Assembly (NCBI GenBank): GCA_046331525.1
Contig: JAXLQQ010000022.1
Location: 9,386 to 73,385, forward strand
Origin: Blastocatellia bacterium
GTDB lineage: Bacteria > Acidobacteriota > Blastocatellia > RBC074
Length of the DNA: 64,000 nucleotides
Direction of reading: 5' to 3'
Below the pieces are notes generated by a model. The model did not search any database and had not been told where the DNA came from. It worked only from the letters and a program-made list of their open reading frames with translations. Positions 36,267 to 45,146 of this stretch are shown here, in pieces; within the stretch, counting starts at the first letter, position 1, and each line of letters starts with the position of its first letter. Made by a program: the position numbers and the translations under genes.

Positions 36267-39510
<3,244 letters not shown>

Positions 39511-39520
39511 CAGATGATTT

Positions 39521-40072
39521 ATGCAGATTGTTGACCTCCAAACTAACAACCAAACCGCGCTACAACAGTGCGCACAAATCCTCTACGATTCGTTTCAGGA
39601 ACACGCGCCGAAAGCCTGGCCGACACTGAAGGCAGCGCTAGAGGAAGTGCAGGAATCGCTGGCCGCAGATCGCGTCAGCCGCATTGCCATTGATGAAACG
39701 GGCAATGTGCTGGGCTGGATTGGCGGCATTTGCGAGTACAGCGGACACGCCTGGGAATTGCATCCGTTAGTAGTCAAAGCGACTGAACGACGGAAAGGCA
39801 TTGCGCGGGCGTTGGTGCAAGATTTGGAAGGGATCATCAAAGCGCGAGGCGCAACCACGCTTTACCTCGGCACCGATGATGAGGACAATCGCACTTCATT
39901 ATCCAATGCTGATTTGTATCCGGATGTTTTCGCGCACATCAAGCAAATCCAAAACCTGCGGCAGCATCCCTATGCGTTTTATCAAAAGCTCGGCTTTGTC
40001 ATCGTCGGCGTTTTGCCAGATGCGAATGGGCCGGGCAAACCAGATATTTTTATGGCGAAACGAATCGCATAA
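39521..40072 (+). CDS. GNAT-family N-acetyltransferase (AAC(6')-like by pattern)
   Basis: The acetyl-CoA-binding segment is LHPLVVKATERRKGIARALVQDLE, and YQKLGF lies at the C-terminus. Confidence 0.8.
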   Translation: MQIVDLQTNNQTALQQCAQILYDSFQEHAPKAWPTLKAALEEVQESLAADRVSRIAIDETGNVLGWIGGICEYSGHAWELHPLVVKATERRKGIARALVQDLEGIIKARGATTLYLGTDDEDNRTSLSNADLYPDVFAHIKQIQNLRQHPYAFYQKLGFVIVGVLPDANGPGKPDIFMAKRIA

Positions 40073-40102
40073 TTTTACACAACAACCCCTGGAGACAACC
40101 CA

Positions 40103-40432
40103 ATGAAGCTTATGAAATCACTCGTAATTTTACTTGCCCTGTTCGCCGCCGCCTGTGGGCAAACTTCGTCCGGCGAAATTGCCGTGAAGGACGTAGCCGC
40201 CACGCGCGCATTATTCGCGAGCCAACAATGTGCCACCTGTCACGGCAACAATGGCGAGGGCGGTGTGGGCGCGAAACTCACCACTGGTTTGCCAATGCAA
40301 CGTTCGCTCGCGCAGATCGAAACGCAAATCAAAAACGGTTCCGGCGTGATGCCTGCATTTCAAGACAAGTTAAGTGAAGAACAAATTCAGGAATTGGCAA
40401 AATTCGTATACAAAGAAATACAAAAACGCTAA
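40103..40432 (+). CDS. Class I c-type cytochrome lipoprotein
   Basis: It has a signal/lipobox LFAAACG, the heme motif CATCHG, and a distal Met in GSGVMPAF. Confidence 0.8.
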   Translation: MKLMKSLVILLALFAAACGQTSSGEIAVKDVAATRALFASQQCATCHGNNGEGGVGAKLTTGLPMQRSLAQIETQIKNGSGVMPAFQDKLSEEQIQELAKFVYKEIQKR

Positions 40433-40588
40433 TCGAGGCAACGCGACGATGCACAAGCAGTGCGCGTTGGTTTGACGATGAAGTATCAAATGGCAGCGAA
40501 AACCCAAGTCCCAAGGGGGCGAAATCCGGGAGTCCGGGGCGGAGCGGTAGCGCAACCTCAGGAAAACCGTGCCCTGTTGGGGCTGAAA

Positions 40589-41863
40589 ATGCTGTTTTTG
40601 TTGCGCAACATTCTTGCCCTGTTCTTTTCCCTGGCAACCGTTGCCTTGGCCCAACTCAATGAAATCGGGTTGAAAGATGCGATCAAATACGCGCTGGCGA
40701 ATAACAAGAACCTGCAAGCGGATCGTAAACAACTCGACATCGCTGCCGGGCGATTGAAACAGGCGGGACTGCGCGCGAATCCGATGCTGGAAACTTCGGG
40801 CTTGTCGGGCCTGATGGATAGCAGCATGCAATCAGGTTCGGTAATGATGACATTGCCGCTCGAAGCAGGCGGGCGGCGCGCGCGGCGGATCGAAGTGGCC
40901 GAACGCGAATTACAACGCTTGCGCTACGAAGTCGCCGAACGCGAACGCCGACTCACGGCTGACGTGCGCATCAAGTACGGCGAGGCCGTCGAAGCGCAGC
41001 GCAATCTTGATCTGAGCAATCGTCTGCTCGAATTAAATCAAAACACCTATCGCATCATTCAGGCGCGCGTCACCGAAGGCGCAAGCGCACCGCTCGAACA
41101 AAACCAACTACAGGTCGAAGTCAGCAAGCTCGACGCGCAAAAACAAACTTACATTGCCCGCGTGGCCGTGTTGCGCGAAGAATTAAAAGCGCTGCTCGGC
41201 ACCGAAGAAGACCTGCGCTGGCGTGATGAATTTGTCGCTTTGCCGGTTGCGCTTGGCAAAGAGGAATTGCTGCAAGCGGCCTTCAACTCACGCCCGGATT
41301 TACAGGCGGCACGCGCAGCGGAAGCGGTTGCGGCAGCGATGATCGAACAGGCAAAAACCGAAGGGAAATATGATTTGAGCTTGTTTGCCGAACTCGGTTT
41401 TCAACGATGGCGCTTCGATCAATTCGGCTTCGCGCACGATGGCGCGTTGGAACAGGTCGGAATGCGGACGGGAATGGTGCGGGCGGGCGTCAGCCTGACG
41501 TTGCCGCTGCGCAACAAAAATCAAGGCAACATCGAAGCGGCTGTCGCGGCCAGCGAAGAGGCGCGGTTGCGGCGTGAATTCGTCGAAACCATGATTCGGC
41601 GCGAAGTCACGGCGGCCTATGTGCGATGGGAAGGCGCAGCGCGTGTGCTGAAAACCTACGATACGGAACTACTGGCGGCAGCTCAAAACAATCTGCGCGT
41701 CGTGCGCTCCAGCTTCGACCTCGGCTATTCGCGTATCACCGAAGTGCTGGCCGAGCAGCGGCGGTTGGTGGAAGTGCAGATGAGTTACACGGCAGCACTG
41801 AAGGAATACTACGTCGCACGGACTGAATTGGAAACCGTGACAGGCGCGGAACTGGGCAAATGA
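40589..41863 (+). CDS. cusC: TolC-family outer-membrane efflux protein (CusC-like)
   Basis: The start MLFLLRNILALFFSLATVALAQ looks like a signal peptide. Two OEP repeats have coiled-coil sequence. The track ORF starts earlier, at 40460. Confidence 0.8.
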   Translation: MLFLLRNILALFFSLATVALAQLNEIGLKDAIKYALANNKNLQADRKQLDIAAGRLKQAGLRANPMLETSGLSGLMDSSMQSGSVMMTLPLEAGGRRARRIEVAERELQRLRYEVAERERRLTADVRIKYGEAVEAQRNLDLSNRLLELNQNTYRIIQARVTEGASAPLEQNQLQVEVSKLDAQKQTYIARVAVLREELKALLGTEEDLRWRDEFVALPVALGKEELLQAAFNSRPDLQAARAAEAVAAAMIEQAKTEGKYDLSLFAELGFQRWRFDQFGFAHDGALEQVGMRTGMVRAGVSLTLPLRNKNQGNIEAAVAASEEARLRREFVETMIRREVTAAYVRWEGAARVLKTYDTELLAAAQNNLRVVRSSFDLGYSRITEVLAEQRRLVEVQMSYTAALKEYYVARTELETVTGAELGK

Positions 41864-41866
41864 GTT

Positions 41867-43165
41867 ATGACTGAAAATGACCAGGAACAAGAACTGCGCG
41901 CACCCACAAAACGCCGCTGGATATTGGCTATCGCGGCGCTGGCGCTCGTGGTCGTATTGGCGCTGGCTGTTGCGTTGTGGCGTCGTCCAGTACCGACGGC
42001 TGGCACCGCAGGTCGCGAAGTTCCTACCGTCGAAAGCCTCGGCGGGCAAACCGCTGGCCGCGAAGTCCCCAGCGTTGAATCGGTTTCCGGCAGCGAAATG
42101 CCTATGCCTACAGGCAAAGGCGACTTGACTTTACCGCCGGAAATGATTGAGCGCATCAAACTGCAAGTGGCCGAAGTCAAAACCCAGGCAGTCGCCAACC
42201 AATTGCGCACGACGGGCACGGTGCAGGCCAACGCTTACAAAGAAACGCGCGTGACGCCGCTGGTCGGGGGGCGCGTAACCGCAGTCAATGCGCAGCTGGG
42301 CGATGCCGTAAAAAAAGGCCAAACGCTGGCCACGATTTTCAGTACTGATCTGGCGCAGGAGCAGATGGAATATTTGAAGGTCGAAGCCAATTTGAATCTG
42401 CACATTGCGCAATCCGAGCGCTATCGCAAGCTCGCCGAAATCGGCGCGATCAGCGTGCAGGAAAAACAGGAAGTGGACGCCCGATTACAGGAACATCACG
42501 CTGAACACGCCAGCCACCGGCAAAAGCTCAAATTGCTCGGCCTGAGCGATGCGCAAATTGACAACTTGAAAAACGCAGCGACGGTGACTTCAGAGGTTGC
42601 CGTGCCTGCGCCGTCGTCCGGCATTATCACGACACGCAGCATCAACGTCGGGCAGGTCGTCACAATAGCCGACAGTTTGTTTTCTGTAACGGATTTGACG
42701 ACAGTGTGGGTAATGGCGAACGTCTACGAAAAAGACTTCAACACAATGCGCATCGGCGCGCGCGTCACGGTCACTGCGCCCGCATATCCGGGTCGGCAAT
42801 TCAGCGGCACGATTTCTTACATTGATCCGCGCGTTGACCCGAACACGCGCACCGCGCAGGCGCGTATCGAAGTGCCAAACCCCAATCAAGCCTTAAAAAT
42901 CGGGATGTTCGTGGATGTTGCCTTAAATACCGCGGGCACGCAGGGAGCCGTTTTGGTGCCGAAGGCCGCGCTGCAAATCATCAGCAATGAGCAGGCCGTG
43001 TTTGTCGCGCTGGGCGGCGGGCAGTTTCAAATGCGCAAGCTCCAACTGGGCGAGGAGGTCGGTGATGCTGTGCGGGTCGTGAGTGGCGTGAGTGCAGGAG
43101 AAAAAGTCGTAACGGAAGGCAGCTTCTTTTTGCGCGCCGAAATCGGCAGGCGCGGAAATCAATAA
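41867..43165 (+). CDS. cusB: RND efflux periplasmic adaptor (CusB/HlyD-like)
   Basis: It has a transmembrane anchor and lipoyl/beta-barrel segments (TGTVQANAYKETRVTPLVGGRV, VWVMANVYEKD). Confidence 0.8.
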   Translation: MTENDQEQELRAPTKRRWILAIAALALVVVLALAVALWRRPVPTAGTAGREVPTVESLGGQTAGREVPSVESVSGSEMPMPTGKGDLTLPPEMIERIKLQVAEVKTQAVANQLRTTGTVQANAYKETRVTPLVGGRVTAVNAQLGDAVKKGQTLATIFSTDLAQEQMEYLKVEANLNLHIAQSERYRKLAEIGAISVQEKQEVDARLQEHHAEHASHRQKLKLLGLSDAQIDNLKNAATVTSEVAVPAPSSGIITTRSINVGQVVTIADSLFSVTDLTTVWVMANVYEKDFNTMRIGARVTVTAPAYPGRQFSGTISYIDPRVDPNTRTAQARIEVPNPNQALKIGMFVDVALNTAGTQGAVLVPKAALQIISNEQAVFVALGGGQFQMRKLQLGEEVGDAVRVVSGVSAGEKVVTEGSFFLRAEIGRRGNQ

Positions 43166-43168
43166 GGA

Positions 43169-44228
43169 CTAGGGCACTGGCGGCGTCAACTCCGCTTTCT
43201 TTTGCTCAATCAGTTCCCGCACCGCTGCAATTGAATACTGCCCCGGCGGCGTATGCTGCGCGGCCATTCGTTCCACCAGATCGAGCAAGGCGAAATTATA
43301 CGGCGTCGGAAGGTTGTATTTTTCGCCGAGCAACAGGATTTCGCCGTTCAGATAACTGGCCTCGCATTCGCCGTGCTGCCGCTGTAAATCCACCCAAGTC
43401 GAGACGTACGTGCGGTGTTCTTCGGGCAAATTTTCTGCCGCGCGAATCGCTTCTTCATTCGGTGCGCTTTCGCCGACTTCGCGCGCGCGGCGCGTCATCG
43501 CGTACACATCCAGTGGGCTATTGCCTTCGTTGAGCGGAATGCCGGAGGCTTCGACCACGCGCAAGCCTTCTTCCTGCACTTCTGCCATCAGCAAACTAGC
43601 TTCGGGCAGATTCCACGCAAGCTGTAAATGATGCCCGGTTGCCGCGAGCAACGCATTCGTCAAATTCAACACCAGCTTGCCCCACTTCGCCGCCATTACG
43701 TGCGCTGATAGCACCGCATTGAAACCGGCCTTCGCCAAATCCTGCGCAACCTTTGTAGCGATTTCGTCGCAGCCGAGCGGGTAATTCCCAATTGCCAAAT
43801 CCTGTTTCAGCGTATGCGCCGCTACGCCTGCCTCCAGATAATTCACGCACGCCGCAATCATCACACCGTAGACGTGCAGGAACCGTTCGGCAGCCGTCGT
43901 TTCATTGCGCACGCCGTTTTGCAGGCAAAAGAGCGGCGTGTCCTGCGGGAAGACTTCGTGCAATTCGTGAATGCATTGATTCGTCTGCGAAGCAACGCCG
44001 GCATCGCATATCGCCCGACTGCGGCGTCGGTTCGCGCGGCGATGTGACGGCATTGACATTCGTGACGTGTTTGGTCGGATGAAAGACGGAATGAATCGTC
44101 AGCCCATGCTGATTAATGGCTTCGGCCTGCGCGGGACGTGCGATCAGCACAACGTCCGCGCCCGTGTCGGCCAACGAGCCGCCAACAAGGCAACCAATCG
44201 CTCCGGCACCTTGAACGATGTAGCGCAT
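43169..44228 (-). pseudogene. panE: 2-dehydropantoate 2-reductase (PanE/ApbA family) with one frame break near 44000-44060
   Basis: The N-terminal Rossmann segment MRYIVQGAGAIGCLVGGSLA (43902..44228) and the C-terminal ApbA_C part (43169..44059) lie in different frames. Confidence 0.7.
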
Positions 44229-44302
44229 AAAAAATAAAGAGGAGAATTATTGAGAAAAACTGGTGCTCCCGGCACGACTCGAACGTGCGACCCTCTGCTT
44301 AG

Positions 44303-44957
44303 CCTACCACCCTGGATTTCCCCAGGCTCAGAATCGAGTTGTGGTCTGGGCCATATCTTAGGCATTGCAGCTGGATGCGTGGCCTCTACGGAACCCTCGT
44401 GTAATCATCAGCGAAACGAACGTTCTTAGCCTGATTATTTAGGAGACTTCAATCTAAGCGTCATACAAATATTCACCTCATCTGCTTTGGAAATGATAAC
44501 ATTGTCTGTCTCTGGGCAATAAACACAGAAGGCGTAGCTTGACACTTATCAACTGGCTTACCATAAAGAGAACCGTTTTTGTCTGCCCACCCGGTTAATC
44601 AAATTAACCTGTAGGGCACCGTTTACCATGTCACGATACTTGACTTGCACTCTCGTGGGAATCTTTCTCCATCGTAAGCAACAAGGTCAAAAGGCGCAGC
44701 ATGTTCAGTCGAGGGAAATAAAACCAGATGGCCTTTCTCGACTAAATCATTAGCTTTCGCAACTCCTAAATCACCTTTGTTTTCGTAGTGCGAAACGCCA
44801 TTCATCATCGCACTTAACATACACACCTTTCACAAAAGTAATCGCGAGGTTTTACTCCGGTGTTGTCATATAGAATCCCGTAGGCTTCCTTAGAGATTCA
44901 CCGATATAGCACACCCTCCACTGTACAAATTACGATTCTCTGTGCAGGCTCTATTTG
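44303..44957 (-). ncRNA. Group-I-like intron in the anticodon loop, between nt 34 and 35
   Basis: The 5' exon ends in U and the insert ends in G. A hand-folded P1 pairs CCUU|CA with UGGAGG (44915-44920), placing a U-G at the splice site. Near the 3' end lie ACCAC (44341-44345), the hairpin CCUGG-GGAAAU-CCAGG (44311-44326) and GUGGU (44306-44310). The full core is not assigned. Confidence 0.6.
44386..44826 (-). pseudogene. Intron-encoded PD-(D/E)XK homing-endonuclease-like ORF (I-Ssp6803I / PDDEXK_5-like) with the frame interrupted about 3-4 times
   Basis: The listed 67-aa ORF reads NKGDLGVAKANDLVEKGHLVLFPSTEHAAPFDLVAYDGERF. It continues after a shift as TRVQVKYRDM..., giving the D...QVK motif. 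Further pieces are CVYCPETDNVIISKADE and NNQAKNVRFADDYTRVP-stop. Confidence 0.6.
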
Positions 44958-45146
44958 AAGGCAGATGCTCTATCCACCTGAGCTACAGGAGCACAGCGCG
45001 GTAATTGCAGGATTGCGCGGCTGGTGGCGATTGCCATTACCGATTTTTAACGGTCGGTTTTTCTGGCGGGATAGCGCGTCTTGTTCAGCCTCGTTTCAGC
45101 GTGATTGCCAGCCCCGTCAGGGCGCGCAACTGTTGCTCTATCGCCG

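Follow-up and report, generated by a model that had tools for sequence, protein, structure and literature searches.

A tRNA-Arg(UCU) gene of a Blastocatellia bacterium interrupted by a probable, degraded group I intron of the Arg.3Ug type

We analysed a DNA stretch of 64,000 nucleotides (nt) from a Blastocatellia bacterium (contig JAXLQQ010000022.1 of assembly GCA_046331525.1), which we call the window and whose coordinates are used throughout. On its minus strand, a gene for tRNA-Arg(UCU) is split in the anticodon loop into two halves. The insert, which lies between U34 and C35, is very probably a mobile, IC3-like group I intron such as bacteria carry in tRNA genes; its type has been named Arg.3Ug. 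The window copy is late in its homing cycle, as it contains an endonuclease pseudogene and has insertions or deletions (indels) in the P1 guide, P3, P5, P6, J7/3 and P8. Whether such a copy still splices is a separate question, which we weigh below.

The split gene was first noticed in a reading of the letters without database searches (the sequence-only reading), which placed two tRNA halves with an encoded CCA 655 nt apart on the minus strand. These coordinates are exact: when the halves are joined, ARAGORN recognizes a 77-nt tRNA-Arg(tct). The cloverleaf had been called flawless, and it is indeed regular, but its acceptor stem includes one G.U pair. Similarly, only one junction had been thought compatible with the sequence, whereas two placements fit because a C is duplicated at the boundary (CUU|C...G|CUAA or CUUC|...GC|UAA). 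Only the former gives a U at position -1 and a G as the intron 3' end, so that the junction originally chosen is retained. To compare this junction across relatives, we used a working set of 116 copies that comprises the copies derived from a pattern scan (see below), the window and six loci of endonuclease homologues. The junction (...CCUU | ...G) is identical in all 116 extracted copies, and a terminal G, which is position 44303 in the window, is likewise common to all of them. The insert also stands out in its G+C content, which is 40-46% compared to 55-60% in the flanks.

The gene escapes standard annotation. With default settings, ARAGORN reports zero tRNAs of any kind in the 64-kilobase (kb) window. 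In its intron mode, it recovers the same span, but it places the intron at 37/38 and miscalls the anticodon, because the canonical 37/38 site is assumed. The codon AGA is in use in the long open reading frames (ORFs) of the window, where it accounts for 30 of 801 Arg codons (about 2.5 per 1000 codons), and we found no uninterrupted tRNA-Arg(UCU) in the window nor in any of the 127 neighbourhoods that we fetched. In the same 127 loci, we observed a tRNA-His(GTG) in 41 and a tRNA-Pro(TGG) in 31 cases, often adjoining the split tRNA-Arg(UCU).

Three results weigh against our assignment of the insert to a functional group I intron. First, the check that had been proposed together with the sequence-only reading, a search with the Rfam family Intron_gpI (RF00028), returned no match to the window at the gathering threshold, which is 50 bits in the release used, nor at E<=10 on a region of 951 nt. 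Second, 18 relatives without an ORF had no Rfam match at gathering either, and all of them stay below 50 bits. Third, a promoter scan detected no sigma-70-like site upstream of the gene, although this consensus is perhaps not appropriate for the phylum. The sequence-only reading had named the lack of a covariance-model match together with the lack of a foldable P3-P7 core as its refutation; the Rfam null alone corresponds to one half of this combination, and we therefore sought relatives. We do not take the null as a refutation because a 445-nt insertion in L6 breaks the Rfam model. With permissive settings, three of eight ORF-less relatives match RF00028 over its full length (model positions 1-253), each time on the insert itself and in the right orientation, with scores of 34.7, 33.1 and 24.2 bits (E 3.8e-5, 1.2e-4 and 0.056, computed for 64 kb against 4227 families).

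As the L6 insertion defeats a single model, we built two covariance models, both trained on 44 relatives only and with the window left out. Model R2 describes the sequence 5' of L6 (108 positions) and model R1 the sequence 3' of L6 (107 positions, with P7 nested). Both match the window in full length, and each match is the only one in 64 kb: R2 at 44963-44850 on the minus strand (60.7 bits, E 2.6e-13) and R1 at 44397-44297 on the minus strand (83.2 bits, E 1.2e-21). On 13 other ORF-bearing copies, none of which was used in training, the scores range from 89.2 to 100.6 bits for R2 and from 93.6 to 109.6 bits for R1.

The fold is furthermore supported by covariation among 45 distinct copies. Standard pairs fill 97.7% of 2202 pair cells, compared to 30-39% in controls for which we slid the partners by 1-3 columns. 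Changes on both sides are found in 27 of the 49 pairs, and the cells changed on both sides number 320, compared to 14-48 in the slid controls; none of the 500 shuffles reached any of the observed covariation measures. Pairs with double changes are distributed over P2 (8 of 9), P3 (5 of 6), P7 (2 of 6), P8 (3 of 4), P9b (5 of 5) and P9 (2 of 5). We excluded P5, distal P6 and distal P9a from this count because their alignment is inconsistent across clades. The covariation backs a fold of P1, P2, P3, P4, P6, P7, P8 and P9 that includes the P3/P7 pseudoknot, and the Rfam alignment, the curated structure line of Williams and our own alignments agree on the layout. The arrangement of P7, a P3'-P8 hairpin and P7' that had been drawn by hand near the 3' end is present. 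With significant matches of R1 and R2 and a core that covaries, both halves of the refutation named above turned out the other way.

In the 5' part of the family layout, P1 (CUU|C / GGAG, with a short L1) is followed by a 'CC' linker, P2, the joiner J2/3 with the sequence GUGGA, and P3. The middle part consists of J3/4 (UAUA), P4, P5, P6 with the ORF in L6, J6/7 and P7 in the form G[A]GNCNA. Then follow J7/3, the 3' strand of P3, P8, J8/7 (AAGAUA) and the 3' strand of P7. Towards its end, the intron has two hairpins, of which the second carries an invariant GAAA loop, enclosed by the closing helix ACCAC/GUGGU, and the 3' end has the form A/U-A/G-G. The most conserved core motif is AAGAUAU(A/G)G(U/C)CC in J8/7-P7, which is invariant or nearly so. 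In P7, all 45 copies have GC at the G[A]G...C-C pairs, and the bulged A with its adjacent G-C pair would be the expected guanosine-binding site. P7 also shows a compensatory change, as the window has GGCCA/UGGCC where GACUA/UAGUC is common. Besides the invariant GAAA in P9b, the family has a CCUUAAC...GAUGG or UCUAAG...UAUGA motif in P5, of which the window has the latter, receptor-like form together with an 8-nt lineage-specific insertion; these are likenesses of sequence motifs only, and P5 is inconsistently aligned across clades.

If one considers only the missing Rfam match of the window and the different, canonical-site intron that is called by the intron mode of ARAGORN, the insert might be taken for something else, either another mobile element or a protein-spliced tRNA intron of the archaeal or eukaryal type in the anticodon loop. 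This we regard as practically out of the question. Covariation backs a complete group I fold with its pseudoknot, 116 copies share the core motif AAGAUAUAGUCC as well as U-1 and the terminal G, and ORF-less homologues match RF00028 in full length; moreover, there are no inverted repeats or transposase, and the site is 34/35 and not 37/38. The covariation and the matches of R1 and R2 effectively refute a reading outside group I. The proposal of a group I intron that separates nt 34 from nt 35, follows U-1 and ends in G is thus borne out by the covariation, the family models and the junction shared by 116 copies.

The identity of the strand that guides P1 had to be revised. In the sequence-only reading, CCUU|CA was paired with UGGAGG further into the intron. 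This UGGAGG exists at intron nt 38-43 and is able to pair, but we reject it as the guide. Its GUGGA is the conserved J2/3 joiner, and the two G's that follow are the outermost pairs of P3, which covary with P3' (GC 24, CG 19 and UA 2 for one pair; GC 34 and AU 9 for the other). Three aligned relatives (L009, L080 and L124) and a divergent Vibrio copy (L056) read GUGCA and not GUGGA, and the required U-1.G pair of a distal P1 would therefore be lost in them. A GGAG located 4-60 nt after the splice site is, by comparison, conserved in all 44 aligned relatives (CUU|C / GGAG), and the GGAG next to P2 is also the P1 strand in Williams's seed. We therefore place the real guide of the window at 44951-44949, where GAG pairs with the exon nucleotides C-U-U. 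A U-1.G wobble with the guide is found in 45 of 45 aligned copies; the window keeps this U.G and loses the C+1-G pair. In the gammaproteobacterial copies L010, L023, L049, L066, L068, L075, L080 and L105, we observed a hairpin-like insertion of 20-60 nt in L1, between the splice site and GGAG.

The insert carries pieces of one gene in two alternating frames. When these are stitched together, the translation matches PF11645 (PD-(D/E)XK endonuclease) with 80.3 bits (E 1.8e-22; the Pfam cut-off is 26.1), and the N-terminal fragment alone reaches 27.7 bits. The endonuclease ORF that had been claimed for the insert thus exists as PF11645 coding sequence in L6, but it is not intact: the path from the ATG at 44820 to the TAG at 44388-44386 requires five pieces with four frame changes, and there are in-frame stops. 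The stop codon of the ORF overlaps J6/7 and the first nucleotide of P7. A protein database search yielded 272 intact homologues of 135-150 amino acids (aa), the best of which is 68% identical. No intact close orthologue (>70% identity) was found among 5.8 billion proteins, a collection that includes the sample of a 99.7%-identical strain. Several homologues from metagenome-assembled genomes (MAGs) of Pyrinomonadaceae are named 'group I intron-associated PD-(D/E)XK endonuclease' by NCBI, and all six of the endonuclease-homologue loci that we checked lie inside a tRNA-Arg(UCU) split at the same place. Compared to 19 aligned homologues, the window protein has lost nearly invariant residues: HHTK is changed to HYEN (positions H10/T12/K13), D97 is replaced, and the CYYF block is changed to VIIS (C109-Y111). 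Among 45 long intron copies, an ORF of 125 aa or more is retained in 38 and missing from seven, including the window. Most likely, the endonuclease gene of the window is a true pseudogene.

The stitched protein had no match in a single-sequence search of the PDB; the best PDB match of the family profile was weak (2OST, E 0.037, profile positions 6-103 of 137); this entry is I-Ssp6803I, the endonuclease of the Synechocystis tRNA-fMet intron. Zero NCBIfam models matched the endonuclease, and exact look-ups of the broken N-terminal ORF (with GTG and ATG starts), meant to reveal the pseudogene in an independent assembly, returned no record, which is uninformative.

Two observations concern the way in which ORFs may be lost from these introns. 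The direct repeat GATTAC flanks the ORF block of the window at 44838-44844 and 44400-44406 (CGCGATTAC... / ...GATGATTACACG), that is, at the ends of L6, and an analogous GATGAT repeat is found in L002; such microhomology could mediate a precise deletion of the ORF. In the ORF-less copies L029:1956-2226 (259-nt intron) and L047:7689-7957 (257-nt intron), about 30 nt in L6 are homologous to the 3' end of the ORF (...GCGGCTGATTACACAGGGG), and these remnants resemble traces left behind when an ORF was deleted.

The frameshifts and core indels might be consensus errors, caused for instance by long reads or by a strain mixture in a metagenome, in which case the endonuclease of the real copy would be intact and its core canonical. 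Some lesions are indeed of the slippage type (GG to G in the guide and in P8, A's lost from an A-run, GU and UA added in dinucleotide repeats), and the neighbouring apbA gene differs from a related contig by four deletions clustered in about 25 nt, which resembles a local consensus problem. This contig, the Logan short-read contig L001 (SRR26348421), comes from an independent sample and matches window positions 38867-44294 at 99.74%. All indels between the two are located in the one patch of about 25 nt in apbA, and there are none in the other 5.4 kb. The window is therefore not generally indel-prone, and we rejected a generally indel-prone assembly as the cause of the frameshifts. In addition, nearly invariant endonuclease residues were lost by substitution, which indel errors do not explain, an intact orthologue is missing even from the collection that contains the sample of the 99.7%-identical strain, and broken ORFs also occur in the long copies of other genomes. 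Together, we consider an assembly artefact quite improbable.

The apbA/panE-like gene itself (43169-44228, minus strand) has four deletions (5 nt net) and two substitutions relative to L001 at 43992-44010. It is split into overlapping ORFs (43169-44059 and 43902-44228) in the window, whereas the ApbA of L001 is intact with 354 aa. The break may be genuine, with apbA being a pseudogene, or it may stem from an error of the local consensus. The right end of L001 corresponds to window position 44294, inside the tRNA 3' exon and 8 nt short of the intron boundary; this stop could reflect alleles with and without the intron, or several intron variants, in the sample SRR26348421.

The lesions in the core raise the question of whether the window copy is still active. 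By having GAG and not GGAG as the guide, it has lost the C+1-G pair and any P10 (possible 3 base pairs, bp) with the 3' exon. P3 has two extra nt in its 5' strand, with 7 bp still possible in a shifted register, and three extra nt are found at the P4/P6 junction. J7/3 is 1 nt long instead of 3, and P8 reads AGC/GCCU compared to AGGC/GCCU in the relatives, so that one base of the 5' strand is gone and 3 bp with a bulge are left. When the 116 copies are threaded onto the family profile, the window has the highest number of core deletion events (8, compared to a median of 3) and 7 unpaired positions (median 1); a few copies do worse, and most of these are truncated or mis-threaded. For both R1 and R2, the window scores lowest of the 14 ORF-bearing copies. 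The lesions in the guide, P8 and J7/3 weaken the core, and the window copy may not splice, which is a further point against our interpretation.

Taken to its end, this point would make the locus a dead relic: a group I intron by descent that has lost splicing, in a tRNA pseudogene, with AGA being read by another tRNA-Arg(UCU) gene elsewhere. Besides the damaged P1 guide, P8 and J7/3 and the excess of core deletion events, such a relic would agree with the low scores in both halves (60.7 compared to 89-101 bits; 83.2 compared to 94-110 bits), with the endonuclease being a pseudogene and with the frameshift in the neighbouring apbA, which hints at local gene decay. However, both exons yield a complete cloverleaf with an encoded CCA, and P3, P4, P7, P9 and P9b are intact, with all of them able to pair. 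The lineage-specific compensatory changes in P7 (GGCCA/UGGCC) imply selection for pairing. There is also no other tRNA of any kind in the 64-kb window, and for other genomes PMC4853749 reports no tRNA-Arg-TCT besides the interrupted one. We therefore regard a dead relic as unlikely, though worth serious attention.

Rather, we favour, with modest confidence, that the intron of the window still splices, perhaps inefficiently, since the exons and P3, P4, P7, P9 and P9b are intact, AGA is used, and an uninterrupted tRNA-Arg(UCU) is found neither in the window nor in the 127 loci. If this is the sole tRNA-Arg(UCU) gene, splicing might have shifted to the 6-bp pairing of CCUU|CA with UGGAGG, or it might have become dependent on a host factor, both of which we hold to be very improbable. 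If true, the former would be a natural re-wiring of the guide, and the latter would be an essential gene whose ribozyme is coming to depend on protein.

Table 1. Features of the split tRNA-Arg(UCU) gene and its probable group I intron (window coordinates).
Feature	Position	Strand	Description	Basis
tRNA-Arg(UCU) 5' exon	44992-44958	minus	35 nt; nt 1-34, final nucleotide U34 = U-1 of the splice site	ARAGORN on joined exons; junction kept in 116 copies
Group I intron (very probable)	44957-44303	minus	655 nt	ARAGORN, composition, alignments, covariation, family models
tRNA-Arg(UCU) 3' exon	44302-44261	minus	42 nt, C35 to encoded CCA	ARAGORN on joined exons
P1 guide (3' strand)	44951-44949	minus	GAG here, GGAG in 44/44 aligned relatives	alignments, P1 columns
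P2 hairpin	44921..44947	minus	CUGCACAGA / UUUGUACAG, one C.A mismatch	family covariation, window alignment
J2/3 and P3 5' strand	44910..44921	minus	GUGGA; GGGUGUG (2 nt longer than relatives)	P3 covariation
P4 enclosing P5	44857..44904	minus	UCGGUG / CACCGG	alignments, covariation
P6	44390..44858	minus	GGAGUAAAACCUCG / CGAGGGUUCC, bulged; L6 = 445-nt ORF block	alignment with ORF-less relatives
PD-(D/E)XK homing endonuclease, most likely pseudogene (PF11645)	44386..44820	minus		ORF pieces, Pfam match
P7 5' strand	44380..44386	minus	G[A]GGCCA (bulged A, then G-C pair)	P7 compensatory changes
P3 3' strand and P8 hairpin	44360..44379	minus	CGCAUCC; AGC-UGCAAU-GCCU	alignments, covariation
J8/7 and P7 3' strand	44348..44359	minus	AAGAUA; UGGCCC	invariant columns, Rfam alignment
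3' domain	44303..44345	minus	P9 ACCAC/GUGGU enclosing P9a and P9b (CCUGGG-GAAA-UCCAGG), then A-G-G	covariation

Relatives of the intron are widespread. We scanned species-representative genomes with a pattern made of the core motif and the start of the 3' exon (AAGATATRGYCCAGAC-N30-60-GCTAAG) and found at least 120 loci; among those listed, a tRNA-Arg(UCU) gene split at the same junction is seen in 107 by a strict test and in about 110 by a G.U-tolerant extraction. Hosts among the matches listed are Pyrinomonadaceae, Blastocatellia and other Acidobacteriota; Bacillus cereus, B. thuringiensis, B. pacificus, Lysinibacillus, Exiguobacterium, Neobacillus and Thermoactinomycetaceae; furthermore Chitinophagales, Saprospiraceae and Cytophagales (Bacteroidota), Anaerolineae and Caldilineales (Chloroflexota), Arenicellales, Vibrio floridensis and other Gammaproteobacteria, as well as bins of Nitrospiraceae and Elusimicrobia. 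The inserts fall into two size classes, which are 201-370 nt without an ORF and about 600-668 nt with an ORF. The genome of the window is itself absent from the matches listed. The closest of them is L002, with 77% over the intron and apbA, which by itself puts the host into Acidobacteriota, in the neighbourhood of Blastocatellia/Pyrinomonadaceae. The downstream apbA is common to the window and L002-L004.

Some of these copies deserve separate mention. The genomes of the B. cereus group carry the intron in their tRNA-Arg(UCU) gene, and the ORF-less introns of Bacillaceae, which are about 285 nt long (L011:6375-6670, L033:87-385 and L036 from B. cereus), have a conserved, structured L6 extension of about 90 nt with recurring ...GAAGG...GGUAG... 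motifs that replaces the ORF. In L017, from a bin named Clostridia, and L120, from a bin named Elusimicrobia, the exons and introns resemble the acidobacterial sub-type, and these loci may be mis-binned contigs or the result of recent horizontal transfer.

By analogy with established group I chemistry, splicing would begin with a precursor tRNA that folds such that the exon nucleotides C-U-U pair with the guide (G)GAG to form the U-1.G wobble. A free guanosine, held at the G-C pair beside the bulged A in P7, would attack after U34. The terminal G (44303) would then take over the guanosine site, and ligation of the exons would give a tRNA with the anticodon UCU. Where the endonuclease is intact, it would be expected to cut intron-less tRNA-Arg(UCU) genes and thereby lead to homing. 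The stages of such a homing cycle are seen in the family, which includes copies with an intact ORF (most of the long ones), copies with a broken ORF, ORF-less copies with an ORF stub and minimal ribozymes of 201 nt. The family thus offers a well-populated view of the homing-endonuclease cycle at one target site in at least seven phyla. There is also a practical consequence: because default ARAGORN and the curated Rfam threshold miss such genes, tRNA-Arg(UCU) looks 'missing' from many genomes. This applies to strains of the B. cereus group and to many MAGs of Acidobacteria, and it can distort estimates of tRNA complement and of genome completeness. The general knowledge of group I introns is unchanged by these results.

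The host tRNA had been thought to be new for a group I intron, in particular in an Acidobacteria-like genome and with an endonuclease ORF. This claim of novelty does not stand, as the Arg.3Ug type is already contained in Williams 2020, interruptions of tRNA-Arg-TCT are described in Beggiatoaceae, and the intron is widespread, including in MAGs of Acidobacteria. According to this paper (bioRxiv 10.1101/2020.01.27.920355), the intron-bearing tRNA types of bacteria were raised from four classical ones to 21; none of the 12 Rfam model seeds is bacterial, and a threshold of 18-20 bits combined with a split-tRNA call was used instead. The curated seed alignment given there holds an entry 'Rba190.Arg.3Ug' with the P1 CUUC/GGAG. 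Arg.3Ug is defined by an insertion into a tRNA-Arg that follows the third nucleotide of the anticodon loop (34/35) and combines U-1 with a G at the intron end, and the window intron has all of these properties. The Arg.3Ug seed and the window agree in the tRNA isotype, the loop site CUU/C..., U-1, the terminal G, the short P1 CUUC/GGAG, the core GUAGAGACUA...AAG-AUAGUCCAG and the closing helix ACCA...UGGU, whereas in J3/4-P4 the seed has the usual AAAUUCGGGG and the window lineage UAUAUCGGUG. Because of this difference in J3/4-P4, the window lineage probably belongs to another sub-lineage than the seed.

For the Beggiatoaceae, MacGregor 2013a reportedly described an interrupted tRNA-Arg-TCT in BOGUAY. 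In Thiomargarita nelsonii, the automatic annotation lacked tRNA-Arg-TCT, which appeared to be interrupted by a putative group I intron without an Rfam match (Flood 2016, PMC4853749). Like the window, these cases are thus negative in Rfam; they differ in belonging to Gammaproteobacteria and in having inserts of about 320 bp, whose structure and subgroup are not determined there.

Among the introns of other tRNAs, that of the cyanobacterial and plastid tRNA-Leu(UAA) (Leu.3Ug) is inserted after U34 as in the window, although the tRNA is different. It follows the same rules of U-1 and terminal G, has an IC3-type compact core like the window intron, and usually lacks an ORF; its self-splicing has been shown experimentally. 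For the tRNA-Arg(UCU) lineage, we found no report of experimental splicing in the literature. The Azoarcus tRNA-Ile(CAU) intron, an IC3 intron inserted after nt 36 and without an ORF, has a compact P2-P9, GAAA in L9 and a P5 receptor like CCUAAG/UAUGG, and its likeness to the window is one of sequence motifs only. The Synechocystis tRNA-fMet intron resembles the window in being a bacterial tRNA group I intron with a PD-(D/E)XK endonuclease of PF11645, although the similarity is remote; the tRNA and the site differ (fMet.2Ug), and the gene in the window is most likely a pseudogene. All three elements of the window locus, namely its host tRNA, its insertion site and its endonuclease family, were thus known before, and the locus is a further, degraded member.

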